Shown: positions 23,250-54,870 of the stretch, one piece after another
How positions within the stretch are numbered: the first letter of the stretch is position 1
Layout of the letters: the number at the start of each line of letters is the position of its first letter
IMG/VR virus record: IMGVR_UViG_2724678985_000012
DNA length: 64,000 bases
Direction: 5' to 3' (one strand)
Source of the DNA: a virus
Lineage: Duplodnaviria; Heunggongvirae; Uroviricota; Caudoviricetes
The notes under the pieces: model-generated
The model's input: only the letters and a program-made list of their open reading frames with translations
Database searches by the model: none
Told to the model about the DNA's origin: nothing
Position numbers and translations under genes: made by a program

Positions 23250-23326
23250 GATGGTGTAGCTCAGTAGGATAGAGCAGCAGCCTTCTAAGCTGTCGGTCGG
23301 TGGTTCGAATCCACCCACCATCGCCA
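23250..23326 (+). tRNA. tRNA-Arg (anticodon UCU)
   Basis: 77 nt cloverleaf: acceptor GATGGTG/CACCATC, anticodon loop CTTCTAA, T-loop TTCGAAT, encoded CCA. Confidence 0.85.
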
Positions 23327-23331
23327 ATTTA

Positions 23332-23418
23332 GGGGAGTTAGTCCGTAGGGGTAGCGGGGTAGACTGTAAATCTACTGTCATTGCGACTCGGGTGGTTCGA
23401 CTCCATCACTCCCCACCA
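23332..23418 (+). tRNA. tRNA-Tyr (anticodon GUA), long variable arm
   Basis: 87 nt; anticodon stem-loop GTAGA-CTGTAAA-TCTAC as in E. coli tRNA-Tyr; acceptor GGGGAGT/ACTCCCC; CCA. Confidence 0.75.
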
Positions 23419-23422
23419 AATT

Positions 23423-23498
23423 GCCGGTTTAGCTCAGTTGGTAGAGCGCCTGCCTTGTAAGCAGGATGTCAGCGGTTCGAGTCCGTTAACCGGCACCA
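23423..23498 (+). tRNA. tRNA-Thr (anticodon UGU)
   Basis: 76 nt; acceptor GCCGGTT/AACCGGC; anticodon loop CTTGTAA; CCA. Confidence 0.85.
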
Positions 23499-23704
23499 AC
23501 ACAACAGGTAAGGGCATTCTCCCTTATGGGGCTTGGCTTAAATGCATCGAGTGCTCTTACCGTTGTGATGAAGTGCAGCTCTTTGAAGCAACCAGAAGAT
23601 AAGCATCTGGCTTCACAACATAAACCGCAGGAACGACCAATAAACGGTAGTCCGTATGGAGAACACCCCGTTGAGGAAGAGGCCTGGCCGGAACCGTAAC
23701 CGGC

Positions 23705-23803
23705 ACCACAACGTTGAGAACACTGGCGTAACGGGGTCATATCCCAATCTATGAATAAATGTTGCGTTGCAGCGTGACAACCAGTGTTCTCAACATTGTG
23801 GTG
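23705..23803. repeat. long inverted repeat (20-bp arms) of the tRNA-island leader/trailer repeat family
   Basis: CACCACAACGTTGAGAACACTGG ... CCAGTGTTCTCAACATTGTGGTG; related copies at 23498-23518, 23562-23592, 23881-23902, 24080-24111. Confidence 0.7.
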
Positions 23804-23900
23804 AATGCACAGGCTGATGTGCCGCAACTACAGTAGTGCGCGCTTTGCGGGGCTTGCTACAACCCTGTGTCGGAGTTCAGCACCGACCATCACAATCACT

Positions 23901-23987
23901 GGAGAGTAGGGAGCATGGTGCTCAAGCGGTCTTGAAAACCGTCCCATTGCGCAAGCGATGATGGTTCGATTCCATTACTCTCCGCCA
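23901..23987 (+). tRNA. tRNA-Ser (anticodon UGA), class II with long variable arm
   Basis: 87 nt; acceptor GGAGAGT/ACTCTCC; anticodon stem-loop GCGGT-CTTGAAA-ACCGT; CCA. Confidence 0.7.
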
Positions 23988-24250
23988 GTGCAACGTTAAG
24001 AGTATTTGGCTAATTAAGCGAATGCCGGAAGCAGAACCGGATCACCAAATGCGTACAGGCGTCATCGCCGCCCAGCCAGCCAAGTGCTCTTACCATTGCG
24101 GTGAATGCGGCTAAGCGCACGCGGAACAGTTAAAACAATCCTCCTTAGTGGTTAAGTCAAACATCCCGGCGTTAATTGTTAACTGGTTAACGTCACCTGG
24201 AGGCACCAGGCACCGCAGCTTTTTTATTCGGTAAATAATGGAGTGAGAGG

Positions 24251-25294
24251 ATGCAGAACAATCCGAACAAATGTCGAACGCTATGGGTGCGGTTATATAT
24301 TTATGTCGTCCTCTGTTTGATTGTGTCACTGGTTCTGTATGTTTGGCTTTTGCCAAATATGATCTCATCTGACAGCACAATACTTGTATTGTTGGGAGTC
24401 CTTCTCGCGCTCATTTACCCGGCTTTTGCAGTAGTCTTTTTTCGTGAAAAAACCAGGAAATTGATTAATGAAAAAACGTTGATTAGTGCAGCGATTATTT
24501 TTGGTTCTTTATGTCTGACCGGATGCGATCGGGTAGAGCCAGGTAACGTAGGGATCAAAGTAAATAAGCTGGGGGATGATAAAGGTATCGGTGAAGTAGT
24601 TGGCGTTGGTCGCTACTGGACAGGCTTGAATACTGAAGTTTATATCTTCCCGACCTTTAAGCAAATGAAGACATACGATGAGCCGTTCAGCTTCCAGATG
24701 AGCGACGGAACAACCATTGGTTACCACATCGGCGTAGCCTACAAGGTTGATCCAGCAAAAGTCACAACGGTATTTCAGACCTATCGCAAAGGTGTAGATG
24801 ATATTACTGATACCGATCTACGCCAGAAGGTTGCAGATGCTCTGAACCGGTTAGCCAGCAAAATGACCACCGACAAATTTATCGACGGTGGCAAATCTGA
24901 ATTGCTTGATGCAGCCCTTAAAGACATTCAGGAAGAAATGACGCCCATCGGTATTCAGGTAATGAGCCTCTCATATGTGGGCAAGCCGGAGTACCCGCCA
25001 ACCGTTATCGACAGCATTAATGCCAAAGTCACGGCGAACCAGAAAACTCTGCAACGCGAGCAGGAAGTCAAGCAACGCGAAGCAGAAGCCAACATGCTGC
25101 GCGCAGAAGCTGCTGGACAGGCCGATGCCATTCGCACAAAAGCCCAGGCTGAAGCTGATGCCATTCGTTTACGCGGTGAGGCTCTGCGCCAGAACCCCGG
25201 CGTTATGGAGTTGGAAGCGATCAACAAATGGAACGGAACGCTACCGCAGTATATGACCAGTAATACCGCTGTTCCGTTTGTTCCGGTGAAATAA
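24251..25294 (+). CDS. SPFH (band-7/prohibitin)-domain membrane protein
   Basis: N-terminal TM/lipobox-like LTGC; SPFH-like core then Ala/Glu-rich coiled coil; true start likely downstream (24358 or later). Confidence 0.55.
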   Translation: MQNNPNKCRTLWVRLYIYVVLCLIVSLVLYVWLLPNMISSDSTILVLLGVLLALIYPAFAVVFFREKTRKLINEKTLISAAIIFGSLCLTGCDRVEPGNVGIKVNKLGDDKGIGEVVGVGRYWTGLNTEVYIFPTFKQMKTYDEPFSFQMSDGTTIGYHIGVAYKVDPAKVTTVFQTYRKGVDDITDTDLRQKVADALNRLASKMTTDKFIDGGKSELLDAALKDIQEEMTPIGIQVMSLSYVGKPEYPPTVIDSINAKVTANQKTLQREQEVKQREAEANMLRAEAAGQADAIRTKAQAEADAIRLRGEALRQNPGVMELEAINKWNGTLPQYMTSNTAVPFVPVK

Positions 25295-25448
25295 CCAAAT
25301 AGATAACATGATGGAATTTTGGACGTTTGCCGACAAGAACCCTTGGTGGACATTTTTATTTCTGCTGGTGGTTGCATATGGGGTCGAGCAAGCAGCAAAA
25401 GCCTTACGCGGTCCTGGCAAAAAGCGTAAGCGGAATTAACAGTAATCT

Positions 25449-25524
25449 GGCCCTTTAGCTCAGTGGTTAGAGCTGGCGACTCATAATCGCACGGTCACCG
25501 GTTCAAGTCCGGTAGGGGCCACCA
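25449..25524 (+). tRNA. tRNA-Ile2 (anticodon CAU, ileX-like; Met not excluded)
   Basis: 76 nt; near-identical architecture to E. coli ileX; anticodon loop CTCATAA; CCA. Confidence 0.75.
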
Positions 25525-27054: not shown

Positions 27055-27447
27055 ATGGAACAAATCAGCAGCGCAGAAATTGCGGATATCATGATCAGGG
27101 CTGACTGCTATCTGACAGTCACTGAAATTACCACTCTCGCCAAAGAAAAATACCCTCATCTCCATGTTTCACGAGTAAGTGTAACTAACATCATTCGTCA
27201 TTTTGTTCGTTCAAGCAGGGCAATCTGTGAGCTGGATGATCGTGTGTATCCACGAAAATACTGGCTACATGGTCTGAACGGATATCAGTTCAAGGTGCGC
27301 GGGCGCACGCCTGAATACGGTAGCTTACTGGTTAAAAACTGTAGCAGGAAATCAGTCGAACAGGCGCGAAAAGAGCAACGAGAGCTGGTGGACATGGCGA
27401 ATAAGCTGTGGAATGCCGCCGTTAAAAAGCGTGGTGTTGCTTTATGA
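27055..27447 (+). CDS. putative late-promoter activator (Lpa-like) by synteny
   Basis: 130 aa, immediately upstream of pacA-like gene; operator-like motif in its promoter region. Confidence 0.3.
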   Translation: MEQISSAEIADIMIRADCYLTVTEITTLAKEKYPHLHVSRVSVTNIIRHFVRSSRAICELDDRVYPRKYWLHGLNGYQFKVRGRTPEYGSLLVKNCSRKSVEQARKEQRELVDMANKLWNAAVKKRGVAL

Positions 27448-28808
27448 GTCTGGTTAATTGGGAGGAGCACCGCGCCCGCTTTATAGCGTTGCGTGAAGAA
27501 AAAGGGATCACTGTAAAGGAATACTGTGAGGAGCATGGCCTTAGCTTCAATACAGCCAGAAAGCATCTCAATATGAAAAAAAATGAGGTGCGGTCGCAGG
27601 TAAAGACAACAAAAAAAAGCACCAAATCACCTGAAAAAAAACGGGCGGGAAGAGCAACAAAAAAGCTGGAAGAGGGTGCAGAAAAAACAAAATTTACAGA
27701 AATTGACAATTCGCAGGGCGCAGGTTCTTTCCGAAGTATGCCGAGAAAGAAAACTTCGGATCATGAAAATAATGCAAATAATAACAATGAGATAAAAGAA
27801 TCTGTCAGGAGATCATTGCGCGAAAAAATGGCGAAAATGATCCCCGAAGAAGATAAAAGCGCCCCAAAAATTGAGGGATCTTCAGCAATGATCCCTGGCG
27901 GTGCTGTGCAACGTGCCACATTGCCCACTACGAATGTGGCTCGCGACATGATGAAGAACGGCGCAGAAGAACACCTGCGGTTAGCAATTCAAATGGCGCA
28001 AGAGCGCGCACTTCAGTATCAAAGCATTGTTGATCAGGAGGCCGAACGTCTACAGGCGGAAATAGACGCCTTGGGCGATAAAGAGCCAGAAGGAATGCAC
28101 CCTGGGCAGCGCCTTCTCGGTCTAATCAGTGACGCGGCCTACTACATGAATGATTTTATCAGTAGGTTGGCAGCTATATATCAGTCCGAACAAAAGCTGC
28201 GACAGGGGGATGAAAAGCTTCGTCAGAGCGCTCGCCAGCAAGCATTCAAAGAGGCTGAGGCCAGAGAAAAACTCGAATTAGCACGCCTACAGGCCGAACA
28301 GCGTGGCAAAGAGATTGAATATCGCATTGGCGCTGACGCACGCGCTGCCAGAGTTATCGCCGCCGCTATACGTATGCGTGAGCGCGAGGAACTGGATGAT
28401 ATCGGTGTTGCTGAATACATCGAGCGCCAGGGGGTCAGCGTCCCGGCTATCCTCGCGGCGCGCGCGGCGAAAGCTATCACTCTTCTCGAACCACCTGTTT
28501 CTGACGTCAATGATGTTGATGATGAACAGCTGGACAAAGAGGCAAGGGAGTTTGCAACGCTTCAGGCTAACCATCCGCAATGGCTGGCAGAGCGCCGGGC
28601 GGATGTGGCAACCATTGTTGAAGAATTGGGGTGCGGAGATTACGACCGCAATGGCGAGCGTAAAGCTGGAGAATTCGAGGCCAACGACGAAGAGCTGGAT
28701 ATTGACCCTTCGGCAACGGCTGAAATTTACGGTGATTATGATGCATCTGATGCAGGGTATGACGCCGGAGATGATGATATCGCGATAGAACCGCCGGAGG
28801 ATGATTAA
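27444..28808 (+). CDS. pacA: terminase small subunit PacA-like
   Basis: 454 aa; N-terminal HTH; acidic C-terminus; translationally coupled to large subunit; GATC cluster inside. Confidence 0.6.
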   Translation: MSLVNWEEHRARFIALREEKGITVKEYCEEHGLSFNTARKHLNMKKNEVRSQVKTTKKSTKSPEKKRAGRATKKLEEGAEKTKFTEIDNSQGAGSFRSMPRKKTSDHENNANNNNEIKESVRRSLREKMAKMIPEEDKSAPKIEGSSAMIPGGAVQRATLPTTNVARDMMKNGAEEHLRLAIQMAQERALQYQSIVDQEAERLQAEIDALGDKEPEGMHPGQRLLGLISDAAYYMNDFISRLAAIYQSEQKLRQGDEKLRQSARQQAFKEAEAREKLELARLQAEQRGKEIEYRIGADARAARVIAAAIRMREREELDDIGVAEYIERQGVSVPAILAARAAKAITLLEPPVSDVNDVDDEQLDKEAREFATLQANHPQWLAERRADVATIVEELGCGDYDRNGERKAGEFEANDEELDIDPSATAEIYGDYDASDAGYDAGDDDIAIEPPEDD

Positions 28809-30316
28809 TGGCTGGCGGGCGCAAGATTAAATGCGTCACCAGCGATCCACGCTGGCGCGATATGGTAATCAAATACCGCTACAACTTTACCCAGGCTGTT
28901 GTCGATATTTTTGGGATGTTCCCCTCCCACCAGCAGCAGCAGATCATTCAGTCAGTGCAGGAAACGGGGAGTAGGACGACCGTCACGTCCGGACACGGAA
29001 CGGGGAAGTCGTCCCTTACCGCGATGTTGCTGTTGATTTTTATGATCCTGTTCCCCGATGCCCGTGTCATCATTGTTGCTAACAAGATAGGCCAGGTAAA
29101 AACAGGCGTATTCAAATACGTTAAACAGTATTGGGCGAATGCAGTTAAGCGTCATGGGTGGTTGCAGACCTATTTTGTCCTCTCTGACACCATGTTTTAT
29201 GAGCGCTCCCGTAAGGGGATTTGGGAAGTTCTCTGCAAAGGTTATCGACTCGGCAACGAAGAAGCGCTGGCGGGGGAACACGCGGCACATTTGCTTCTAA
29301 TTCTGGACGAAGCATCTGGTATATCTGATAAGGCGATCGGCGTAATGACCGGTGCTCTTACTGAAGAAGATAACCGGATGTTGATGCTATCCCAGCCAAC
29401 AAGGCCAAGTGGTTATTTCTACGATTCGCACCATTCTCAAGCAAAAACCCCAGACAACCCGAAAGGGATCTGGACAGCAATTGTTCTTAACTCGGAAGAA
29501 TCACCGTTCGTCACACCACAATTCATCAAGCAGAAGCTTCTGGAATATGGCGGGCGCGATTCTATTGAGTACATGGTCAAGGTGCTTGGTCAGTTCCCAC
29601 GAGAAATTAACGGCTATTTGCTTGGTCGTGATGAATGCGATCGCGCTGCTCGCCGCAAGGTGTTGTTGGAGAAAAACTGGGGATGGGTGGCAACGGCTGA
29701 CGTTGGTAATGGGCGAGATAAGTCGGTCCTCAACATCTGCAAAGTATCTGGTCACAGGGATAAGCGGCGCGTTGTTAACTTTAAGGTAATGGAGATGCCT
29801 GGCACTATGGACCCATTGGCCTTTGCTGACTTCATATATAACGAATGTACGCCGGAAAAATACCCGAATATAACAATCGCGGTTGATGCTGATGGTTTTG
29901 GTTCTGATACGTGTGCGCAGTTGGTGCGTCGTGGTGCGAACCCGGTACGTATTCGGTGGGGAAAACCCATGTTTGCGAACAAAGACAGGGAGCGATTTGT
30001 TAATCAGCGTGCCTACGCAAATATTATGGCGCGAGATGCCATAAAGTCAGGGCGTATGCGGATAGACAGTGACCCTAAAACGGCAGAGCAAGCGTCAAAA
30101 ATCCCCTTTTTACTGAATGAAGAAGGGAAAATGGCGATGATGCGCAAAGAGCACATGCGGCAAAAGCTAAACATCAAATCGCCTGACCGATGGGATACCT
30201 ACTGCTTCACTATGCTGGTGGACTATGTGCCTGCTAATGAAGATATTGGTGCCGAAATGGCAACTTTCCGAGATCAGGTTCTGGCGGATATCGAAATGCC
30301 GGATCTGGATATATAA
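28808..30316 (+). CDS. pacB: terminase large subunit PacB-like
   Basis: 502 aa; Walker A SGHGTGKSS and Walker B LLLILDEASG. Confidence 0.75.
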   Translation: MAGGRKIKCVTSDPRWRDMVIKYRYNFTQAVVDIFGMFPSHQQQQIIQSVQETGSRTTVTSGHGTGKSSLTAMLLLIFMILFPDARVIIVANKIGQVKTGVFKYVKQYWANAVKRHGWLQTYFVLSDTMFYERSRKGIWEVLCKGYRLGNEEALAGEHAAHLLLILDEASGISDKAIGVMTGALTEEDNRMLMLSQPTRPSGYFYDSHHSQAKTPDNPKGIWTAIVLNSEESPFVTPQFIKQKLLEYGGRDSIEYMVKVLGQFPREINGYLLGRDECDRAARRKVLLEKNWGWVATADVGNGRDKSVLNICKVSGHRDKRRVVNFKVMEMPGTMDPLAFADFIYNECTPEKYPNITIAVDADGFGSDTCAQLVRRGANPVRIRWGKPMFANKDRERFVNQRAYANIMARDAIKSGRMRIDSDPKTAEQASKIPFLLNEEGKMAMMRKEHMRQKLNIKSPDRWDTYCFTMLVDYVPANEDIGAEMATFRDQVLADIEMPDLDI

Positions 30317-30317
30317 A

Positions 30318-30336
30318 GCCCCGCGATGCGGGGCCG
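30318..30336. terminator. bidirectional hairpin between convergent pacB and 30344-31381
   Basis: agccccgc-gat-gcggggc; T-rich run on minus side. Confidence 0.5.
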
Positions 30337-30343
30337 GTTGTGA

Positions 30344-31381
30344 TTACCAGAGCTTCGCGGCGTACTGCGTTTGGGGGAATGTGTATCCGTAACGTTCTTC
30401 GATTGCTTTGCCGTATTTTTTACGAGCTTCATTCAGTTTAATGCCGGTCAGGTCGTCTCCAGAGGCCATCATTACGTCTAACAATTCCAGATCCATTTTA
30501 TCCAGCCTTGCCATTGCTTCACGTGATGTACGTATCTTACGTTCAATGATATGGCGAATAGCCGGATCGGCATCCTCCAGCATCTTAGCGGATTTCTGCT
30601 TAAGGCTTTCATTGCGAATATCGATGTTCCTTAAGATGTACGACTTCGCAACGTAGCTTGGCTGGTGTTTTTCCAGGTCACGAACACGATATAAGTTAAA
30701 ATCGCCGAGAAGGCTGCAAGGTACCGATTCGACGCCAGAATAAATTGTAATGCTCCGGCGTTCACCAACATTATTGACAACGGGGATCGTTGTCTTCGGT
30801 AGTCTTGCGAAAACCAATGCGCCATGTGCGCCAACTCTAAAGCGAGAAAGGGCATTGCTGCCTTCGATGTTTGTTGTCAGCACAACATCTGTATATGCCT
30901 CTTTACGCGCCCGGTAGATCTCGCCTTCAGGCTCAGCTTCAAAGAAGCGCTGTTCTTCTTCAAGAGCACCTACGATTTGAGAAAAAACCCTATTTTTCAG
31001 GCTTTTCTTTATGATTTTGTCGTATTTTTTTAGCAATTGTTCACGTGTAAATGTACGTGTTGTTGTAGCGCTTTGCACAACGACATGCGTGCTTTGATTG
31101 GTGTCCTCAATGATGAATGGGATCGGAGAATATACAGACTCAACAATGTTCGACGCTTTGCCGTCGGCATCGCGGCACATGTCAACGAAGGCTTTCCATT
31201 CAGCAAGACATTTTTCAGCTTCTTCTAATATGTTTTGGTCATGCGTTAATGCAACATGGCGGAATTCCTCGCCAGCATAACTGGTATCATGGAAAACAGA
31301 GTTTGCGACCACCAGCTCTTTCCACCGTTCAGCGGTTTGCAGGAACCGTTTGTACTCTTTCTCGATCGACTTCTTACTCAT
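30344..31381 (-). CDS. hypothetical protein in the pac-to-rox interval (candidate immunity repressor by position only)
   Basis: 345 aa; operator-like motif overlaps its promoter/start region. Confidence 0.3.
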   Translation of the reverse strand: MSKKSIEKEYKRFLQTAERWKELVVANSVFHDTSYAGEEFRHVALTHDQNILEEAEKCLAEWKAFVDMCRDADGKASNIVESVYSPIPFIIEDTNQSTHVVVQSATTTRTFTREQLLKKYDKIIKKSLKNRVFSQIVGALEEEQRFFEAEPEGEIYRARKEAYTDVVLTTNIEGSNALSRFRVGAHGALVFARLPKTTIPVVNNVGERRSITIYSGVESVPCSLLGDFNLYRVRDLEKHQPSYVAKSYILRNIDIRNESLKQKSAKMLEDADPAIRHIIERKIRTSREAMARLDKMDLELLDVMMASGDDLTGIKLNEARKKYGKAIEERYGYTFPQTQYAAKLW

Positions 31382-31394
31382 TATTCCTACTCGA

Positions 31395-31413
31395 TTTAGT
31401 TTTCTAACATAAA
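31395..31413 (+). promoter_or_regulatory. C1-operator-like motif site 8
   Basis: GATTTAGTTTTCTAACATAAAAT immediately upstream of 30344-31381 start. Confidence 0.5.
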
Positions 31414-31591
31414 ATTACTATGACAAATTTATGTCGAATAACAGAGTGAGTAAAGGATCGAACTGTGATTTTTTGTCATCAATTTTAGAAAACCAACCGT
31501 AGAAACCACACTTCGCAAATTAAAGACCATGAAGGCAACGTGTTACTGGTCATCATCAATCTATGATGGATTTAAAAAAATCGGCATTTTA

Positions 31592-31623
31592 TAACTTTAA
31601 ATAATTGGCATTATTTAAAGTTA
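31592..31623. other. rox recombination site (target of Dre)
   Basis: TAACTTTAAATAATTGGCATTATTTAAAGTTA, exact reverse complement of the recalled 32-bp rox site; about 150 bp upstream of dre. Confidence 0.85.
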
Positions 31624-31775
31624 AGCTATAATCATGGGTGGATGATCAGTGTTGACATCACTGAAAATACGTGCCTCGAATCAAAGGTTTGAATCTTGAA
31701 AATTAACTTATAGCTACCCTGTCATTTTTATATTTTTCGCGTAGCGTCATCTGTATATAGAGGTTAAATAGTTTC

Positions 31776-32804
31776 ATGAGTGAATTAATTATCTCTGGCA
31801 GCTCCAGTGGTTTTCTGCGCAACATTGGCAAAGAGTACCAGGAGGCCGCAGAAAACTTTATGCGGTTCATGAATGACCAGGGGGCTTACGCGCCTAATAC
31901 TTTGCGCGATCTCCGGTTAGTGTTTCACTCCTGGGCGAGATGGTGTCACGCTCGCCAGCTCGCCTGGTTCCCGATCTCTCCAGAGATGGCCCGCGAGTAT
32001 TTTCTTCAGCTGCATGATGCTGATCTGGCTTCGACCACCATTGATAAGCACTACGCCATGCTGAACATGCTGCTTTCGCATTGTGGCCTTCCGCCACTTT
32101 CGGATGATAAAAGTGTTTCTCTGGCTATGCGGCGCATCCGGCGTGAAGCGGCAACGGAAAAAGGCGAACGAACAGGCCAGGCTATACCGCTGCGGTGGGA
32201 CGATCTGAAACTGCTCGACGTCCTGTTGTCCAGGTCAGAACGGCTGGTGGACCTGCGCAACCGGGCTTTTCTCTTTGTTGCATACAATACGCTGATGCGC
32301 ATGTCTGAAATCTCGCGTATTCGTGTAGGAGATCTGGACCAAACAGGTGACACTGTCACGCTACATATTTCACACACGAAGACAATAACGACCGCCGCCG
32401 GGCTTGATAAGGTGCTTTCCCGTCGCACTACTGCTGTGCTGAATGACTGGCTGGATGTTTCCGGGCTTCGTGAACATCCTGACGCGGTGCTGTTCCCGCC
32501 GATACACCGTAGCAATAAGGCCAGGATTACGACAACGCCCCTTACTGCACCTGCAATGGAGAAAATATTTAGTGACGCCTGGGTGTTGCTGAATAAAAGA
32601 GATGCCACTCCAAACAAGGGGAGATACCGGACGTGGACCGGGCATAGTGCTCGTGTCGGGGCTGCTATCGATATGGCAGAAAAGCAGGTGTCTATGGTGG
32701 AGATCATGCAGGAAGGAACCTGGAAGAAACCGGAAACACTTATGCGGTATCTGCGCCGTGGCGGCGTGTCTGTGGGGGCTAATAGCCGCCTGATGGATTC
32801 ATAA
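31776..32804 (+). CDS. dre: Dre tyrosine recombinase (Cre homolog of D6-type phages)
   Basis: 342 aa; aligns along full length with Cre (LNML, SLAMRRIR, RIRVGD, GHSARVGAA, IMQ-G-W motifs); adjacent rox site. Confidence 0.9.
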   Translation: MSELIISGSSSGFLRNIGKEYQEAAENFMRFMNDQGAYAPNTLRDLRLVFHSWARWCHARQLAWFPISPEMAREYFLQLHDADLASTTIDKHYAMLNMLLSHCGLPPLSDDKSVSLAMRRIRREAATEKGERTGQAIPLRWDDLKLLDVLLSRSERLVDLRNRAFLFVAYNTLMRMSEISRIRVGDLDQTGDTVTLHISHTKTITTAAGLDKVLSRRTTAVLNDWLDVSGLREHPDAVLFPPIHRSNKARITTTPLTAPAMEKIFSDAWVLLNKRDATPNKGRYRTWTGHSARVGAAIDMAEKQVSMVEIMQEGTWKKPETLMRYLRRGGVSVGANSRLMDS

Positions 32805-32822
32805 ATTAAATTTCTAACACAT
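32805..32822 (+). promoter_or_regulatory. C1-operator-like motif site 9
   Basis: AATTAAATTTCTAACACATC right after dre stop. Confidence 0.45.
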
Positions 32823-32877
32823 CTTTTTAGATTGTTATCTTTGCTGTAAAGTACCCTCGCCTATTTCGGAGGGTGCT

Positions 32878-33222
32878 TTGCAGAGTCAAATCACGGAATC
32901 AAGACGCTTTAAGGTGGATGGTTACACCGTAACCTTCGCCGCTGGTGTTAAGAACAGTCATGCTGTCGTTGTGTTCGGCATCATGACCGGGCTTGAGGCC
33001 GTCCCTGTGTTTACCCTCGAAAAAAACTGGCGAAATCTGGAGGAAGCAGAAAGCTACGTCCGGAAAGTAACCATCATTGCCGCCGAAAAACTCCTGGCCC
33101 ACTATCAGGAAAATTATCGCACTATGGTCGAGAAGATTAATCTCGCTTTCACTCGCCCCACTACCGGCTTTATTGCACCGGATACTAATGCAGGTCGCTA
33201 TCCTGCAAGGGGGCGTCGGTGA
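32878..33222 (+). CDS. hypothetical protein
   Basis: 114 aa ORF, non-ATG start likely. Confidence 0.3.
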   Translation: MQSQITESRRFKVDGYTVTFAAGVKNSHAVVVFGIMTGLEAVPVFTLEKNWRNLEEAESYVRKVTIIAAEKLLAHYQENYRTMVEKINLAFTRPTTGFIAPDTNAGRYPARGRR

Positions 33223-37500: not shown

Positions 37501-38251
37501 GGCCCGCCTCATGTTTATCAGCCACCAGCGGCAATAAAGCCTTAGCCATTTCATGAACCAACATGGCATCAATGACGCCTAGCGTATGGCCCGGCTTAAT
37601 CTTTAATGCGGCCTCAAGATAGCCTCTTTCCAGAGTGGTTTTTACGCTTTTCCTAGGCGCTTGTTGGGAACCATCCGGAAGAACCGGATGGTTCCCAGCC
37701 TCATAAGCTACCCGCAACCAGTGCATGAATGTTTCCGCAGACACACAACCGCAGTCCACATCGATTTCCCCGCGTTGCTGCTCCAGCCATTGCTCAAAAT
37801 CTAACTTGTAAGCCTTACTTTCAGACTTGACTTTCTGAGACGCTATGCGAGCTGCTTCATACTGTTCACGAGTGACAACCGATGTAAACGCACTGCGATC
37901 AAGGTCACTGATATCGCAAATAATGCCATCAATGGAATAATTCTTTGATGATTGGTAATTTTTATGGCGCGTACCAAAAAGAACCGTAGCGCGACTACTA
38001 CCTGGCATCGTAATGGATAGATGGCAAAAATCTTTTCCATCAGGCCATCCATGCCCCTTAGATAATTCCTTCACTAACAAGTCAATCAGTGTCATAGCTT
38101 TACCATCCTTGCAAGGCGCTAAAGCTATTTTGGCAAGTTCCAATACTTCATCTGCTGTGTATCCAGCACCGTGACCATACATTTCGATACGGGAAATAAT
38201 ATCTGAAATACGCTCTTTAGTGATTCTTGTCATAGTTTTATTTCCTTGCAT
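37484..38251 (-). CDS. hypothetical protein
   Basis: 255 aa ORF. Confidence 0.4.
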   Translation of the reverse strand: MQGNKTMTRITKERISDIISRIEMYGHGAGYTADEVLELAKIALAPCKDGKAMTLIDLLVKELSKGHGWPDGKDFCHLSITMPGSSRATVLFGTRHKNYQSSKNYSIDGIICDISDLDRSAFTSVVTREQYEAARIASQKVKSESKAYKLDFEQWLEQQRGEIDVDCGCVSAETFMHWLRVAYEAGNHPVLPDGSQQAPRKSVKTTLERGYLEAALKIKPGHTLGVIDAMLVHEMAKALLPLVADKHEAGHANES

Positions 38252-38439
38252 GGTTCGCCTTTACGGCAAACAGCTACACGGTCATTTCTTACATTAACCA
38301 CAGTCACCGTTCCGTCATCGCATTGAATAACGATGAAAGGGTGTTCATTCTCTTTTGTGCAATGTTGCTGTTCCCCTGCTGTAACAGTGAGGGGAATTAA
38401 TAAAATAATAATTACTGCGAATTTACTAAATGTTGCCAT
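38230..38439 (-). CDS. small secreted Cys-containing protein
   Basis: 69 aa; N-terminal signal-peptide-like segment. Confidence 0.35.
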   Translation of the reverse strand: MATFSKFAVIIILLIPLTVTAGEQQHCTKENEHPFIVIQCDDGTVTVVNVRNDRVAVCRKGEPCKEIKL

Positions 38440-38463
38440 AGCAATCTTTCTTTCTGTTTTTCA

Positions 38464-38757
38464 TTATGGTTGAATCCAGTTATCTTCAATAGCAATGCTT
38501 AATCTTTGTAACCATTCTGCTAATTTCAGCATTGCTTCTCTTTCGCTTAAACCACACGGAAAATCATCAAGCGATATTGTTGGCTTGAAGTTTCCTAAAT
38601 TATCCATTTCGACGGTCAGATTTTGCTCCAGCACGGTATTTCTTACGCGGCTATTGTGCCGAAGCAAATATACTGAACGTGATTTATTGGTTTTGTGGTC
38701 GAAAGTATATTCGGTAAGTATCATCTGGCTTCCGCCATGATTATTACCGCGCCACAT
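38464..38757 (-). CDS. hypothetical protein
   Basis: 97 aa ORF. Confidence 0.35.
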   Translation of the reverse strand: MWRGNNHGGSQMILTEYTFDHKTNKSRSVYLLRHNSRVRNTVLEQNLTVEMDNLGNFKPTISLDDFPCGLSEREAMLKLAEWLQRLSIAIEDNWIQP

Positions 38758-38780
38758 AATTACTCCGTGTTAATTGAAAT

Positions 38781-39062
38781 TTAGCTATTAATCTTCACTT
38801 TTATCGCGAACACCTTTACCGGTTTATCACCGAAGTGCGGATGTGTGATTGTTTTTATTTCATATCCGTTATACGGGACGTCAATTCTGCGACTGAAGTC
38901 TTCGCGCTTCGGATATCCCTTTGTGATAATCAGGCGGTCATACTTACGGTTAACGAGGCGCTTATTCCAGTAGTCATTACACAGGCGATACTCTTCCGTT
39001 TTCTCCCCTCGAATCATGGCATCGAAGTATTCACCTTTAACGGCAAGTTGCAGGTTAGCCAT
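38781..39062 (-). CDS. ASCH-domain protein
   Basis: about 93 aa from MANLQLAVKGEYFDAMIRGEKTEEYRL; ASCH-like signature. Confidence 0.45.
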   Translation of the reverse strand: MANLQLAVKGEYFDAMIRGEKTEEYRLCNDYWNKRLVNRKYDRLIITKGYPKREDFSRRIDVPYNGYEIKTITHPHFGDKPVKVFAIKVKINS

Positions 39063-39322
39063 TACCTCACCTCCAGTCTCCATACCGCCTGACCAATCCG
39101 GCTGGCATGGGTATCTTTGGATACTGTTCCGTCTTTAGCCAGCTCCATAAGAATTTTGCGCAAATCTGCCGAACGCCATTCTTCATCAGGAAATTCCTTC
39201 TCCATTGCCAACCGCAGATTCCAGGTTGCCATCCTGAATGGATATTCCCCGCCGAGAGCTTTATCTTGCAGGGCAGCCCGGGAACGCATCACCTGCAAAA
39301 CCTTCTCTTTTACATCCATCAT
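39062..39322 (-). CDS. hypothetical protein
   Basis: 86 aa ORF. Confidence 0.35.
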   Translation of the reverse strand: MMDVKEKVLQVMRSRAALQDKALGGEYPFRMATWNLRLAMEKEFPDEEWRSADLRKILMELAKDGTVSKDTHASRIGQAVWRLEVR

Positions 39323-39894
39323 TTCGCCTCCTGCGGCGGTTCCGGTAGCGGCATCCAGTGAGTTGCTTGCTCAATACCATTACCCGGCTTAATCGTTGCA
39401 TCTCCGCGCCGAAAGGTGCTTCCGGTATAGCGTGCGGAGCATATTAGCGGTTCAACCAGAGAGCTATCGAAATTCACCGAAATAAGCACGTTCTGGTTCT
39501 TTTCAGGCATCCGCTCACTACAGCTTATCCAACCATCCGGAGTTACCGGCACTGGCTGGGCGGTGTAAAGTGGAACAACTCGCCCTCCCCATTGCTTAAC
39601 ACTACTCTCAGCGAACACTAAATGCTCAGTCCGATAATACCCAGGGGCATCAATATCTTTTCTTTCGCTATCCCACATGTAAACCACCGGTTCTGCTTCC
39701 AGTGATGCCAGTGCAATTCGTGCCAGCTCACGCACAACTTCAGGGGGCGCGTAACGGTCATTCAGGTCATCCCACAGGCGTAGCATGTTATCGCTACCAG
39801 GGTGAACATCCTCGTTAGTTCCGGCAAGCGCACTAATAACCTCATCGGCTGCTTCAATAATTTTCTGTGCCTGTTCTCTGGTAATAGTGGTCAT
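39319..39894 (-). CDS. DUF551-domain protein
   Basis: 191 aa; C-terminal ...HWMPLPEPP motif. Confidence 0.45.
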   Translation of the reverse strand: MTTITREQAQKIIEAADEVISALAGTNEDVHPGSDNMLRLWDDLNDRYAPPEVVRELARIALASLEAEPVVYMWDSERKDIDAPGYYRTEHLVFAESSVKQWGGRVVPLYTAQPVPVTPDGWISCSERMPEKNQNVLISVNFDSSLVEPLICSARYTGSTFRRGDATIKPGNGIEQATHWMPLPEPPQEAK

Positions 39895-40276: not shown

Positions 40277-40843
40277 TTACGGTTTTTCATCGTTTTGCTC
40301 TCCTGCGTCTCCTTTGATGCAAATGCCAGCGACGCGTGGCACATTAACTTCCACGATGCGCACAGTTGGTTTGTACATCTCAATCGCTGTCAGCCAGTCA
40401 GCGCCGGTCATATGCTTTTCTGCATCGCCATTAGTCCATTGAACCGGCACACCAATAGCTTTCATCGCAATTTCTATTTCCCCGGCGATGGCGCTTTTTC
40501 CGCAACCAGTAAAACCAGAAACAACGACAAGAACTTCGCCTTTGGCTGGTTTTATTTCCCGTGCTTCCAGTTCTGCAATGCGCTTCTCTGCGGCTTCCAG
40601 CTCAACACGCAGCTTCCCTACCGTTAGCGCAATTTCCTCGTTCTCCTGGTCGCGGCGTTTGATGTATTGCTGGTTTCTTTCCCGTTCATCCAACAATGCC
40701 AGCGCGATATCTGGCGAAAAGTGCTTCATAAAATCGTTAAGCGCATTAATTCGCTGATCGAAAGGCATTACAGGTGCTTCACCAGCAATTTTTGTTTTTT
40801 CAGCGATTTCACGAAGTTTTTGATAGTCAATTTTGTTTGTCAT
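40277..40843 (-). CDS. Ead/Ea22-like protein with P-loop-like C-terminal segment
   Basis: 188 aa; N-terminal MTNKIDYQKLREIAEK, coiled coil, VVVSGFTGCGKS. Confidence 0.35.
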   Translation of the reverse strand: MTNKIDYQKLREIAEKTKIAGEAPVMPFDQRINALNDFMKHFSPDIALALLDERERNQQYIKRRDQENEEIALTVGKLRVELEAAEKRIAELEAREIKPAKGEVLVVVSGFTGCGKSAIAGEIEIAMKAIGVPVQWTNGDAEKHMTGADWLTAIEMYKPTVRIVEVNVPRVAGICIKGDAGEQNDEKP

Positions 40844-41718
40844 ACCACTACCTCTTCGAATTTCAACTCCAATTGGTCACCCCAGATTTCACATGATTCG
40901 GAACACGAACCAGTATCAAACCGCTTGGCCTGCACCATCGCCTGATACAAATTTCTGTAGTCGCTGTCGGCATACATTCTGGCAATCCCGTCAAGCGTCA
41001 GGTGACCACGGTACATAACGTCTTTACCTGTTCTGCGATGACCATCCCTGACGTGTTTGCCTGTAACCAGTTCATTAAAAACCCGCATCAGACCAGGTTC
41101 GTCTTTACATGCAAGCCCCAGCTTTTGCGTTGACTTTTTGATGCAAAAAACACAGTTCCCGAGGTGCTCCGGGATTTGCAAATCAAAAGGTTGTTTTCGC
41201 CACCACCGAATAACATCCGACTTATCAAAATCTGACAGTTCTGCAAGATACCGGACGCCCGGTTTCGGTTTCAGCCTACGGTGTTCGTCCGCACGAATAC
41301 CCAGCCATGTGATGTAATTCCCTCGCCCAAAATGGTCATCGCAATATTTCGTGAAAGGGGTGAGTTTTAGCCTGTCAGTACAGAACGCGCCGCCGATGTA
41401 AGGCGTACCGTACTTTTTAACCATGTCCATAAACGGTTTAAGCACCGGCATTCGCGTCTGAATATCCTTTGGTTCCCATTCCGTATAACCATTTGGCTGC
41501 CCAAGTTCTGGATTTATATCGACCTGCAACACCGTTAGCGGTACGTTCCAGAACTTCACAACCTCACGAATAAAGCGATACGTCAGAGGATGTTCACAGC
41601 CGGTATCCATAAAAATGAAATGGACGCTAGCGCCAGCTTTTCGCTGTGCTTCCATCAGATGAACGAGATAAGCCGATGTTCGTCCACCTGAAAAGCTGAC
41701 AACTTGATGCATACTCAC
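40840..41718 (-). CDS. PAPS-reductase-family PP-loop ATP pyrophosphatase
   Basis: 292 aa; N-terminal VVSFSGGRTSAYLVHLM PP-loop motif. Confidence 0.65.
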   Translation of the reverse strand: MSMHQVVSFSGGRTSAYLVHLMEAQRKAGASVHFIFMDTGCEHPLTYRFIREVVKFWNVPLTVLQVDINPELGQPNGYTEWEPKDIQTRMPVLKPFMDMVKKYGTPYIGGAFCTDRLKLTPFTKYCDDHFGRGNYITWLGIRADEHRRLKPKPGVRYLAELSDFDKSDVIRWWRKQPFDLQIPEHLGNCVFCIKKSTQKLGLACKDEPGLMRVFNELVTGKHVRDGHRRTGKDVMYRGHLTLDGIARMYADSDYRNLYQAMVQAKRFDTGSCSESCEIWGDQLELKFEEVVV

Positions 41719-41721
41719 GGT

Positions 41722-42387
41722 TTATTCCTGAACGCGCTTAAACTCGATTACCCATACCCACGGGTTAGATAGCCAGTTATCCTGCCCGTAAATACTGCGC
41801 CAGATATCACCAAAACCAACGCGATAAACAGCTTCCGGCGGCGTAATTTTGTACATCGCCGGAGATGCGCCTTCTGCTTTAGCATCTGCCTCGCTCATAT
41901 CACGCAGCCGTTCCACACGCACGTCGGTAATTTCCAGCAAAATACGCGAAGCCCAGCGCGGCATGTGAATTGATGGACGCCACCCGCCATCAAACTTTTC
42001 ATTCACAGTGTGAGGTTTCCAGTCGACATCATCGGGTATCGACCACAAACCGTAATCACCAGGCTTTTGCTCACAACTGGCCCGATAAATCCTTGCTGCG
42101 TTCTTCTCATCGCCACGACAAAGGTTGTCGTTCCAGTCCACACTGCAACCATCCTCATTGCCTAATATCGCCCACGCCTCACGGACCCATATGCGATCAC
42201 CAACGTTACCGAACGGGCATAAACCATGTTCAGGTGCATCCATAACGTGGGTATAGACACCATTGCGTTTCTTTGTCGGTTTACGGATAACTAGGCAGTT
42301 ATCGGCCCTGACATTTTTTACAGGTCGGCGAGTCTGCGTCTTCCTTCCTTCGAGGATGGCCCTGACCATCTCATCGTTAAAAATCAT
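41722..42387 (-). CDS. phage protein with ASCH-like N-terminus
   Basis: from MIFNDEMVRAILEGRKTQTRR; family common in lambdoid prophages. Confidence 0.4.
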   Translation of the reverse strand: MIFNDEMVRAILEGRKTQTRRPVKNVRADNCLVIRKPTKKRNGVYTHVMDAPEHGLCPFGNVGDRIWVREAWAILGNEDGCSVDWNDNLCRGDEKNAARIYRASCEQKPGDYGLWSIPDDVDWKPHTVNEKFDGGWRPSIHMPRWASRILLEITDVRVERLRDMSEADAKAEGASPAMYKITPPEAVYRVGFGDIWRSIYGQDNWLSNPWVWVIEFKRVQE

Positions 42388-42418
42388 CCCGCGTTCTTTC
42401 ATTTTTTGATCCACCTCA

Positions 42419-45006: not shown

Positions 45007-45251
45007 TGTGGTGGCTCCTGCTTTTCTGCCTTCAATACCATGCGAGAACCATCATCCAGCTCCCAATTAATTTCACCGCCTTCAGCCATGACTAGATGCC
45101 AAACGAGTTGTGCGGCCTCGTTGGTTACATCACGACCGCGATCATTGCCGACACGACGTTTTGTTCCATCCCCTAAGTCACGCATTTTTGCCAACACGAT
45201 GGTTTTTGATAGCGGTGAAAAACCAAGCTGTAGTCGTGCGGAATTACTCAC
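45003..45251 (-). CDS. hypothetical protein
   Basis: 82 aa ORF. Confidence 0.35.
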   Translation of the reverse strand: MSNSARLQLGFSPLSKTIVLAKMRDLGDGTKRRVGNDRGRDVTNEAAQLVWHLVMAEGGEINWELDDGSRMVLKAEKQEPPQ

Positions 45252-46012
45252 TGTTTGCCTCCTTTTCCAAGCTGGGCGGCGATATCTTCGAGAACGCCAT
45301 CAGAGAATGAGCGGTCAAAATCGCCTTCCGGCGCATTAGCCATAAACTCAGTAGAGGTAAGAATCATCCGGGCAATATCCGCGGCGTTCTTCGCAGTATC
45401 ATCAATAAAACCAGCTTCCCAGGCAGCCAGCATTCTGTTCGCCACAAAGTAAGCGCCCTCCTTGCGTGCTTCAGTCTTCACTTCAGCCAGGAAAGCATCG
45501 GTGGCTGGTGTTTGCGGCATCCCTCCATCTGTTGCGCAGATATACGCATCAGATATTTCATCCTGCTCGCCATCAAACACGTAGCAACTCTGTGCGATGA
45601 ATTTATTCAGCCCCGCATTCTCCGCCGCCAGCGCCGCGCGATTACCCTCCAGCTCTGCAATGCGCTGTTTTGCGGTATCAAGTTCAATCGATAATTTTTC
45701 CAACTGCTCTTTATGCTTCTTGTATTCCTGATATGCGTGCCAGGACTGACCTTTGCGCACACTATCAGTAATATCAGTAATCTGTTCTGGTGTTAGCGTA
45801 GTCAGTGGCTGTGCTGGGAAAATCAGCACTTTCCCGGAATCCCAATCAAAACCAGCGTGAATTGACTGAACCTCAACTGAGGGTGTTGAACCAATGCTGC
45901 CAGGCGAATGAACAACGATCGTTACATCCATATCGCGACGATGGCTGTGGTTGTTGGACAAAATACGATTCACCAACTCAGAAAATTTGGAGAATTTCAT
46001 GCGGAGCCTCAA
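45248..46012 (-). CDS. Ead/Ea22-like protein (paralog A)
   Basis: coiled coil AALAAENAGL then TPATDAFLAEV... domain shared with 46416-46904. Confidence 0.45.
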   Translation of the reverse strand: MRLRMKFSKFSELVNRILSNNHSHRRDMDVTIVVHSPGSIGSTPSVEVQSIHAGFDWDSGKVLIFPAQPLTTLTPEQITDITDSVRKGQSWHAYQEYKKHKEQLEKLSIELDTAKQRIAELEGNRAALAAENAGLNKFIAQSCYVFDGEQDEISDAYICATDGGMPQTPATDAFLAEVKTEARKEGAYFVANRMLAAWEAGFIDDTAKNAADIARMILTSTEFMANAPEGDFDRSFSDGVLEDIAAQLGKGGKQ

Positions 46013-46410
46013 TATGCAAAATAGACCGTTGCCACGCCGTTATAGTGATCAAACGATACGGCGTTTACTTCATAGCTGGCAGGGAGCTTCGAGCCGAGAA
46101 CATATCCGGGCCACGTTTTCCATGGAATTTCTCTACTCTCACTATCCCCATATACCGTACATCCAAGTGAACCTACAGCCTCGTCAGAACGTTTGCCGCA
46201 TGTTATGAAACCTATATTTTTCTTGCCGGTCTTAATGGCGATTGGGTGAACACTGGCTGATGCATTGGCAGCACGCTGTGACTGTTGGTTTGCGATATTC
46301 GCAGAGTTCGCAGCAGCTACAGCAGCCGTGGTCGCGGCGGTAGATGCCACAATAACTGCTGAAGCCTGCGCCTGTTGGGTAATGGTCAGCAATGCCGCCA
46401 CAAAAATCAT
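46009..46410 (-). CDS. small secreted protein
   Basis: signal-peptide-like MIFVAALLTITQQAQASA; start uncertain. Confidence 0.3.
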   Translation of the reverse strand: MIFVAALLTITQQAQASAVIVASTAATTAAVAAANSANIANQQSQRAANASASVHPIAIKTGKKNIGFITCGKRSDEAVGSLGCTVYGDSESREIPWKTWPGYVLGSKLPASYEVNAVSFDHYNGVATVYFAY

Positions 46411-46415
46411 CCTCT

Positions 46416-46904
46416 TCACTTGCCAGCTCCTTTGCGAATCTGTTCCGCCCATTCTTCAAGGGATTTCTCCGCATATTCACCAGACAGGCCATCAATCGGA
46501 TGCGCTTCATTAGCCAACTCTTCTTTCGCTGACAAAATCATGCGTGTAACGTCGAAAACTTCACGCAAAGACTTATTGATAAATCCGTGATTGAACGCAG
46601 CAGCAAGACGGCTTGCGGTATAGTTAATCCCCTCGTTGCGAGCCGCCGCACGAATTTCAGCCAGAAAAGCATCGGTGGCTGGAGTTTCGCTGTGGTGCAG
46701 GGCATCGTTGATAATCATTGCAGCAACTCCGGCCTGCCCTGCATCCGTGACCGACACATGCTCAAGAGTTACAGCCATTGCATGTTTCAGCCCAGCATTC
46801 TCCGCCGCTAGCGCAGCACACGCTTTCTCAAGTCGGGAAATTTCCGTTACATACTCAGCGTTACGCTCTGCCAGTTGTGCGGGCGTTAAACCTTCAGACT
46901 TCAT
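46416..46904 (-). CDS. Ead/Ea22-like protein (paralog B)
   Basis: 162 aa; AALAAENAGLKHA and TPATDAFLAEIRAAARNEG. Confidence 0.45.
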   Translation of the reverse strand: MKSEGLTPAQLAERNAEYVTEISRLEKACAALAAENAGLKHAMAVTLEHVSVTDAGQAGVAAMIINDALHHSETPATDAFLAEIRAAARNEGINYTASRLAAAFNHGFINKSLREVFDVTRMILSAKEELANEAHPIDGLSGEYAEKSLEEWAEQIRKGAGK

Positions 46905-54840: not shown

Positions 54841-54842
54841 CA

Positions 54843-54870
54843 AAGGTGGGTTTATCCCACCTTTTTATTA
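54843..54870. terminator. bidirectional rho-independent terminator
   Basis: ggtggg-tttat-cccacc flanked by A-run and T-run. Confidence 0.7.

Follow-up and report, generated by a model that had tools for sequence, protein, structure and literature searches.

The Dre/rox module of a D6-like, P1-family plasmid prophage: the site, the recombinase gene and their variation among relatives

Introduction

An inverted repeat of 32 bp standing shortly upstream of an open reading frame for 342 amino acids raises the question of which site-specific recombination system the locus carries, whether site and gene are native to the element, and what they may do there. A sequence-only reading had taken the repeat for the reverse complement of rox, the protein for Dre rather than Cre, and the element for a member of the D6 lineage. 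The Dre/rox system of phage D6 reportedly goes back to the work of Sauer and McDermott in 2004. In the following, the site, the gene and their surroundings are described for the window, i.e. the whole 64,000-nucleotide stretch of DNA that was analysed, which covers 64 kb of an element of ca. 92 kb, and the locus is compared with its relatives in plasmids, phages and IMG/VR contigs.

Results

The rox site

The 32 bp in question, TAACTTTAAATAATTGGCATTATTTAAAGTTA as given 5′ to 3′ in the window, are the reverse complement of wild-type rox, printed as TAACTTTAAATAATGCCAATTATTTAAAGTTA in PMC4777119, with 0 mismatches. The identification, coordinates and orientation proposed by the sequence-only reading were thereby confirmed, and the check for differences within the arms, by which that reading could have failed, revealed none against the published string. 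The site and its parts are located as follows.

31592–31623, published orientation on the minus strand: rox, 32-bp Dre recombination site, exact single match
31592–31605: left arm of rox
31606–31609: spacer of rox, TGGC
31610–31623: right arm of rox, forming with the left arm a perfect 14-bp inverted repeat with a 4-nt gap

The two arms of 14 bp each are 100% complementary to each other, and the 14-4-14 arrangement is the structure given for rox in the literature (PMC4777119, PMC12331466). Moreover, all 32 of 32 positions are identical to the annotated rox of D6 (AY753669, 4909–4940). The rox string produced one match in the 64-kb window and none in 100 dinucleotide-preserving shuffles. With up to 3 mismatches allowed, the window contained no second rox or pseudo-rox, and with up to 2 no additional half-site; the 14-bp arm was present twice, these being the two arms of 31592–31623. 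The gap from rox to the ATG of dre is 152 bp, contains no ORF and has the same length in D6, and the distance from site to ATG was 151–153 bp in all 35 relatives.

The dre gene and the Dre protein

The recombinase gene was identified on the basis of identity to D6 Dre, Pfam searches and Cre structures.

31776–32804 (stop codon included), plus strand: dre, Cre-like tyrosine recombinase of 342 amino acids

The predicted protein was identical to D6 Dre (AAV84949) at 341 of 342 residues in a gapless alignment, the sole change being G11S. Serine at residue 11 recurs in wild copies of the gene (IMG/VR loci L013 and L024), and the residue is N-terminal to the part aligned with Cre, which begins at residue 22. 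Dre matched the Pfam model Phage_integrase with 62.6 bits (cut-off 27.1) and Phage_int_SAM_1 with 21.6 bits, just under the cut-off of 22.3, and its matches to the XerC and XerD models were weak and sub-threshold. The best PDB matches were Cre structures (E = 5e-69), and no structure of Dre itself was among the PDB matches. The alignment with Cre is continuous over residues 22–341 and supports the two-domain architecture for Dre, in which a helical DNA-binding domain at the N-terminus is followed by the catalytic domain.

Identity between Dre and Cre was 41.6% over 317 aligned residues. Residues R175, E178, K202, H290, R293, W316 and Y325 of Dre align with R173, E176, K201, H289, R292, W315 and Y324 of Cre, i.e. 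the full Arg-Glu-Lys-His-Arg-Trp set with the Tyr nucleophile is intact in the window protein. The earlier description of a downstream 342-aa Cre homologue with the conserved catalytic blocks was hence correct in length and in catalytic residues, none of the Tyr, Arg and His residues whose absence would have spoken against it was missing, and with 341/342 identities to D6 Dre against 41.6% to Cre, the protein is Dre and the system is not loxP/Cre.

At the DNA level, dre differed from D6 dre at 37 of 1029 positions, distributed over 36 codons, with 35 synonymous and one non-synonymous codon differences. Because 35 of these 36 codon differences are synonymous, the gene, as judged from this comparison, is intact and under strong purifying selection.

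The D6 recombinase has been studied in several hosts. Dre recombines rox sites in Escherichia coli, where it both integrates and excises, and is inactive on lox, vox and VloxP (PMC3553980); activity has been reported in E. coli and in vitro (PMC4777119) as well as in Bacillus subtilis, with recombinant junctions within the spacer (PMC12331466). Two rox sites are recombined by Dre alone, and the reaction works also in animal cells (PMC3553980, PMC4777119, PMC12331466). Activity of the Dre-rox pair is thus experimentally established in the literature for a protein of 341/342 identity and for an identical site, and for the G11S allele of the window it is predicted from the sequence.

The element and the neighbouring genes

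In total, 56,277 of the 64,000 bases of the window were collinear with D6, in blocks mostly 94–98% identical and in shorter ones of 76–89%, while ca. 12% of the window was without a D6 counterpart and the tRNA sets of the two differed. In a search of a phage collection only D6 records matched, with 96.7% identity over 1701 bases, and the annotated features of the D6 immC record beneath this match are c1, rox, dre and orf2. The same 1701 bases were 100% identical to plasmids of ca. 92 kb from Salmonella enterica and E. coli (e.g. CP092511, AP022217 and CP057521), the identical wild plasmids originating from farm, food and clinical isolates; in the best-matching ca. 92-kb plasmids there was one place of the module per record. 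The module was further identified in 143 PLSDB plasmids, mostly non-mobilizable and of ca. 90 kb, and in 117 of 5,426 complete E. coli genomes, in which 117 of 120 places were on plasmids.

The genes to the left of rox are the following.

27444–28808, plus strand: pacA, terminase subunit (ORF, D6 annotation)
28808–30316, plus strand: pacB, terminase subunit (ORF, D6 annotation, weak Terminase_6N match)
30344–31381, minus strand: c1, prophage repressor of 345 amino acids, transcribed away from rox and annotated as c1 in D6

The order lpa-pacA-pacB-c1 (minus strand)-rox-dre-orf2-orf3-dut is that of D6. The c1 gene, the variable immunity gene left of rox, produced a weak match to the NCBIfam model phage_rep_C1, under the cut-off. 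The pacA and pacB genes are located 2.8–4.1 kb upstream of rox, upstream as pacAB are relative to lox in P1. Like D6, the element carries plasmid functions.

On these sequence comparisons, the element is a D6-like plasmid prophage of ca. 92 kb (P1 family, Enterobacteriaceae), and not D6 itself. The assignment to the D6 lineage made earlier therefore stands as regards collinearity and identical local gene order, with the qualification that the element is a D6-like plasmid prophage, 96.7% identical to D6 locally. Relative to Escherichia phage D6 (AY753669 for immC; MF356679/NC_050154 for the genome), the site, the gene order and the 152-bp gap are the same and the genome is collinear; the differences amount to 3.6% of nucleotides in dre, 7.9% in the rox-dre spacer and 0.1% in c1, in addition to the serine at residue 11 of Dre.

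Divergence on the two sides of rox

The uneven distribution of these differences was followed in an alignment of 36 IMG/VR loci with seven others, six from plasmids and one from the D6 immC record, and the mosaic pattern described here rests on ca. 40 partly related, non-independent sequences. From pacA to the base before rox, divergence between the window and D6 was 0.1–0.9%, within rox it was 0/32, and the higher values of the rox-dre spacer and dre set in with the base directly after rox, which was the first difference. Separate searches with the left and the right flank returned identities that disagreed within one and the same plasmid. The plasmid CP057047 was 100% identical to the window on the left (0 differences in 1500 bp) and 96.2% identical on the right, the first difference again being the base after rox. 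CP069886 showed the opposite distribution, with 85.3% identity on the left and 97.7% on the right, and compared with c1 of the window, its c1 allele was 90% identical at the protein and 80% at the DNA level. Between L020 and L018, 240 of 1209 positions differed left of rox and 4 of 1200 right of it (20% versus 0.3%), and 22 pairs of loci combined at most 3 differences on the left with at least 30 on the right.

On the left, the loci sort into a few discrete c1 types; the c1 protein of type B shares 90% identity with the c1 protein of the window. Of the 12 bases next to rox, 9 distinguish left types A and B, both of which occur with the same right haplotypes. Two right haplotypes differ from position +13 onward, and all four combinations of A or B with these exist; the cross-overs are therefore confined to 31592–31636. 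With a single exception, the left-arm polymorphism A9G accompanies left type B, which would be expected of an exchange within the spacer. Among informative site pairs less than 150 bp apart, four-gamete incompatibility was 20.9% across rox, 7.9% in the left flank and 10.3% in the right flank. The arms of rox were unchanged in relatives with Dre down to 70% identity, and the bases flanking rox varied. As read from the haplotypes, rox stands out as conserved amid variable flanks and marks a junction of recombination.

The step in divergence might also be explained as the edge of a c1 cassette that was swapped by RecA-dependent homologous recombination in the flanks and not by Dre, an explanation that bears solely on this side observation and leaves the identity of the module untouched. 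A discrete cassette of ca. 1.5 kb, comprising c1 and its upstream region, makes up the divergent segment; its other edge is near the 3′-end of pacB, and such an edge would be visible at rox wherever the cross-overs fell, localisation being given only by the four combinations and the short-range incompatibility results. Homologous recombination also acts in these elements, because a mosaic patch inside dre of CP028585 must have arisen by it. However, the four combinations place the cross-overs within ca. 45 bp including the 32-bp rox, A9G travels with the left flank apart from the single exception, and incompatibility across rox exceeds that of the flanks by a factor of 2 to 2.6, all of which speaks against a swap by RecA only. 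We consider such a swap unlikely as the whole explanation, and the evidence for Dre-mediated exchange between co-resident elements at rox as good but not conclusive. The lox site of P1 is a recombination hot spot, and the junction at rox would be its counterpart.

Predicted promoter and leader of dre

Between the centre of rox and the start codon of dre, three features were identified.

31605–31632, plus strand: putative sigma-70 promoter directed toward dre (-35 TTGGCA at 31605–31610, 16-nt spacer, -10 TATAAT at 31627–31632)
31652–31657, plus strand: conserved TTGACA hexamer, with a Dam site GATC at 31644–31647 before it
31700–31775, plus strand: conserved leader block before dre, including ACTTATAGCTACCCTGTCATTTTTATATTTTTCGCGTAGCGTCATCTGTATATAGAGG, with a GAGG Shine-Dalgarno sequence at 31760–31763

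The predicted -35 hexamer TTGGCA is composed of the last left-arm base, the rox spacer TGGC and the first right-arm base, and the 16-nt promoter spacer of the rest of the right arm and 3 further nucleotides, with only the -35 element inside the 32-bp rox. The arrangement agrees with 11 of 12 consensus positions and was the only match of at least 11/12 in the 64 kb on both strands at 16–18 nt spacing; a separate consensus scan of 31300–32950 returned the same single sigma-70-like site. Among 23 haplotypes, TATAAT was near-invariant, and the 3 bases between rox and TATAAT as well as the bases after it varied freely. TATAAT was also present in a relative with a 70%-identical Dre. The natural spacers TAGT, TAGC and GGGG, described below, weaken the -35 element. 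On this basis, dre would be transcribed from a promoter overlapping rox, and Dre bound to rox would occlude this promoter, which would amount to negative autoregulation. In the searchable literature, to which the original D6 paper does not belong, no report of a promoter function of rox was encountered.

The TTGACA hexamer was kept in five of six aligned sequences of the Dre clade and changed in the 70%-identical L045; in the 55%-identical homologue it was present at an offset, and the 23 haplotypes showed hardly any variation in it. The hexamer may serve a second dre promoter as its -35 element. As a candidate for a complete promoter it was rejected, being without an acceptable -10 element at 16–18 nt. 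Dam sites are located at a cre promoter in the P1 record. The leader block was kept, according to the alignment, in relatives with 70%-identical Dre and partly at 55%. In a search for a structured leader, no Rfam families matched over 31300–33000 at E-values up to 1.

Natural site variants and a homologue

In most loci, the rox spacer is TGGC. The spacer TAGT was found in pK91 of Salmonella Typhi and in a Shigella dysenteriae plasmid, where Dre is 90% identical. The other variants were TAGC in L045, GGGG in L032 and, in L042, TGGA accompanied by an altered first base of the right arm. In experiments, recombination of two rox sites can be blocked by mismatched spacers, changes of the central 4 bases being milder than changes reaching the adjoining positions (PMC4777119), and 4 bp of one-sided homology were found sufficient (PMC12331466).

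A homologue of 338 amino acids, 55% identical to Dre, is encoded by two IMG/VR contigs outside the window, L047 and L048. In both, a rox-like site, TAACTTTATATAA-TGTCAG-TTATATAAAGTTA, stands as far from the ATG as rox does; written out, the site of the L048 homologue is TAACTTTATATAATGTCAGTTATATAAAGTTA. The same A-to-T change is present in both arms, i.e. the arms have co-varied symmetrically. On sequence grounds, the homologue and its site are a candidate for a new specificity.

The observations on the promoter, the junction and the variants might be combined into a wider picture, in which rox would serve beyond maintenance, its spacer would be the -35 element of an autoregulated dre promoter, Dre/rox exchange would reassort c1 alleles, the spacers TAGT, TAGC and GGGG would mark recombinationally isolated sub-lineages, and the 55%-identical homologue would constitute a further heterospecific pair. 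As a joint proposal this is tentative, and we would not quite expect all of its parts to hold.

Comparison with Cre/loxP and other systems

The closest parallel outside the D6 group is Cre/loxP of P1, which shares with Dre/rox the fold family and catalytic residues, a palindrome-like site with an asymmetric core, the location of the site directly ahead of the recombinase gene and downstream of pacAB-c1, the independence of accessory proteins, and the presumed roles. The sites differ in structure, loxP being 13-8-13 (34 bp) and rox 14-4-14 (32 bp), and the two systems do not cross-react (PMC3553980, PMC4777119). In P1, 435 bp separate lox from cre, and cra is located in this interval, whereas here the distance is 152 bp without an ORF, and P1 has coi/imc genes between c1 and lox. 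The three annotated cre promoters of P1 are all outside lox, whereas here the best predicted promoter overlaps rox.

VCre/VloxP, SCre/SloxP, Vika/vox, Nigri/nox and Panto/pox are similar in that a single tyrosine recombinase acts with a short inverted-repeat site beside its gene on a plasmid or phage-plasmid, but these recombinases are far more distant from Dre (Vika is 23% identical, PMC3553980) and their sites are unrelated. The Xer systems with cer or dif share the tyrosine-recombinase reaction and the conversion of replicon dimers to monomers; they differ in relying on a host-encoded heterodimer, accessory factors and topological selectivity, whereas Dre/rox is element-encoded, homomeric and without accessory factors.

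Discussion

The locus very probably represents the native Dre/rox module of a D6-like plasmid prophage of the P1 family, whose natural roles would be of the P1 Cre/lox type, and no evidence contradicting the Dre/rox identity was found. The system as such is already known: it is the textbook Dre/rox module in its native place, and a standard genome-engineering tool.

By analogy with Cre, the two 14-bp arms of a rox site would be occupied by two Dre monomers, two rox sites would synapse, Tyr325 would cleave at the edges of the central crossover region, and the strands would be exchanged through a Holliday intermediate, accessory proteins not being required. As each replicon has one rox, plasmid dimers would be resolved by this reaction into monomers, which would ensure faithful segregation of the low-copy prophage; infecting linear DNA would be circularised provided that rox is part of the terminal redundancy. 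Exchange at rox between co-resident D6-like elements would reassort the c1 immunity side with the dre side, a consequence that the population data support. Transcription of dre would start from the promoter with its -35 element in the rox spacer, and rox-bound Dre would repress its own synthesis.

Dimer resolution and cyclization, which the sequence-only reading had named as the roles of the system, are drawn by analogy with P1. There, Cre/lox is reported by Austin, Ziese and Sternberg (1981) and Lobocka et al. (2004) to resolve plasmid dimers and to be able to circularise infecting DNA, and the P1 record names Cre a 'cyclization recombinase'. The presence of a single rox on a plasmid prophage fits the one-site-per-replicon arrangement of that role. 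Multimer resolution in a D6-like plasmid has been assigned to the Dre recombinase and its site by the authors describing it (PMC6799933), and the searchable literature yielded no experiment on stability or cyclization in a D6-like element. As to cyclization, a search in and near pacA located no P1-type pac site, i.e. a cluster of TGATCR hexamers; the 82 hexamers in the window correspond to chance level and do not cluster in pacA, so that a position of rox within the terminal redundancy of virions is putative.

A role mainly as integrase and attP, by which the element would be inserted into the chromosome rather than maintained as a plasmid, is suggested by the integrative rox x rox recombination that Dre catalyses (PMC3553980) and by the 3 of 120 places in complete E. 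coli genomes that are chromosomal. Yet the remaining 117 places are on plasmids of ca. 90 kb, the element carries plasmid functions as D6 does, and no second rox or half-site is present in the window, which makes this role very improbable as the main one. Still less probable is that the module is a decaying remnant without present function in the element. The copy in the window carries G11S, and its activity is predicted from sequence, but the reading frame is intact with 35 synonymous against 1 non-synonymous codon differences from D6, the site is invariant while the directly flanking bases vary, its distance to the ATG is fixed at 151–153 bp in the 35 relatives, and recombinant haplotypes joined at rox exist. 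A laboratory-derived Dre/rox cassette, present as contamination or construct, might come to mind as the system is a widely used tool and the rox match is exact, but is barely conceivable for a single rox without a flanking pair, in its native place with c1 on one side and orf2-orf3-dut on the other, within 64 kb collinear with D6, beside a dre gene differing from the D6 and tool sequence at 37 mostly synonymous positions and in a stretch 100% identical to wild farm, food and clinical plasmids, and genomic context and synonymous divergence rule out contamination by an engineering construct.

The reading as the native Dre/rox module thus fixes the identity of the window as a D6-like plasmid prophage of the P1 family and adds nothing new on Dre/rox itself. 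A near-consensus promoter predicted across rox and its native downstream flank would be relevant to bacterial constructs that contain this flank, and to the regulation of dre. The natural spacer and arm variants together with the co-varied homologue are candidates for orthogonal recombinase/site pairs. For the biology of the family, the distribution of haplotypes around rox is population-level evidence, good but not conclusive as to the agency of Dre, that a site of the Cre type serves natural phage-plasmids as a junction for recombination.

Mosaic junction at rox and natural variation of the site

Comparison of the region 30092-33100 of the window with the loci L005-L011 and L013-L044 of its relatives showed that wild D6-like elements are joined as mosaics sharply at rox, within 31592-31636, where divergence changed from about 20% in one flank to about 0.3% in the other. 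All four combinations of left type (the haplotype class on the c1 side) and right haplotype (the dre side) were present among the compared loci, and four-gamete incompatibility across rox was 2 to 2.6 times the within-flank value for distances below 150 bp. Mosaicism was also found inside dre. In CP028585, a patch corresponding to 31992-32792, i.e. the 3′ two-thirds of dre only, was 11–24% divergent from the window, and the rest of the plasmid was 0–5% divergent; the patch is evidence of mosaicism by homologous recombination within the gene.

The spacer of rox occurs in nature as TAGT, TAGC, GGGG and TGGA(+G), and the left arm carries an A9G change in about ten loci, the other arm positions being invariant in relatives down to 70% Dre protein identity. 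The distance from rox to the ATG codon of dre was constant (151–153 bp) across relatives, in which variant sites were placed as follows.

L008, 1517-1548: variant rox
L011, 1515-1546: variant rox
L045, about 1817-1848: variant rox, about 152 bp 5′ of the dre start
L032 and L042, about 1817-1848 in each: variant rox, positioned by the 151–152-bp distance to the dre start

Of 120 matches to rox-dre in complete E. coli genomes, 3 were located on chromosomes, not plasmids; these may be integrated elements or assembly artefacts.

Sequence elements ahead of dre

Across the 64 kb, a single sigma-70 promoter match reaches 11/12 or better; it lies at 31605-31632 on the + strand and is directed toward dre.

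Within 31605-31632, +: -35 hexamer TTGGCA, made by the rox spacer
Within 31605-31632, +: -10 hexamer TATAAT, just beyond the rox edge

The TATAAT hexamer forms an island of conservation among relatives. As a sequence feature, this promoter-like site over rox suggests that Dre may be autoregulated. The cre promoters of phage P1 do not overlap lox, whereas here the candidate dre promoter overlaps rox. A GATC-TTGACA motif (31644-31657) and a leader block ahead of dre (31700-31765) were likewise kept in relatives at 55–70% protein identity; neither matched a family in Rfam, and no convincing promoter partner was found for the two elements.

Repeated 14-mer and pac

The 14-mer TTAGTTTTCTAACA was found at 18 places in the window with at most three mismatches, against 6.1 expected, a count reached in none of 100 shuffles. 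Four copies, scattered across the window, are exact. In addition to 15 further places, the 14-mer occurs around c1 and dre.

31396-31409, +: half of an inverted pair upstream of c1
31483-31496, -: half of an inverted pair upstream of c1
32806-32819, +: directly past the dre stop codon

The repeat may serve as the operator for the D6-type C1 repressor. In pacA (27444-28808), TGATCA/G hexamers do not form a pac cluster of the P1 type, and window-wide these hexamers were counted at chance level; this lineage must have a pac site unlike the one in P1.

Differences from D6 elsewhere in the window

Five tRNA genes (Arg-tct, Tyr-gta, Thr-tgt, Ser-tga, Met-cat) were identified at 23250-23987 and 25449-25524, whereas the D6 record has Ser, Thr and Asn tRNAs annotated in the matching region, where alignment identity is no more than about 86%. 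Segments 24217-25307, 37632-39891, 40835-42417, 45008-46647 and 54836-55378 have no counterpart in D6. The following two are among the ORFs in these segments, and most of the others were without a Pfam match.

40840-41718, -: PAPS_reduct-domain protein, within a segment absent from D6
39319-39894, -: DUF551 protein, at a segment absent from D6

Dre homologue with a rox-like site

A Dre homologue of 338 aa with 55% identity is encoded at 2001-3014 of L048, a locus on a viral contig of about 90 kb, and was found in L047 too. It is accompanied by the rox-like site TAACTTTATATAATGTCAGTTATATAAAGTTA at L048 1818-1849, with an identical A-to-T change in each arm. The homologue and its site are a candidate for a new recombinase/site specificity.
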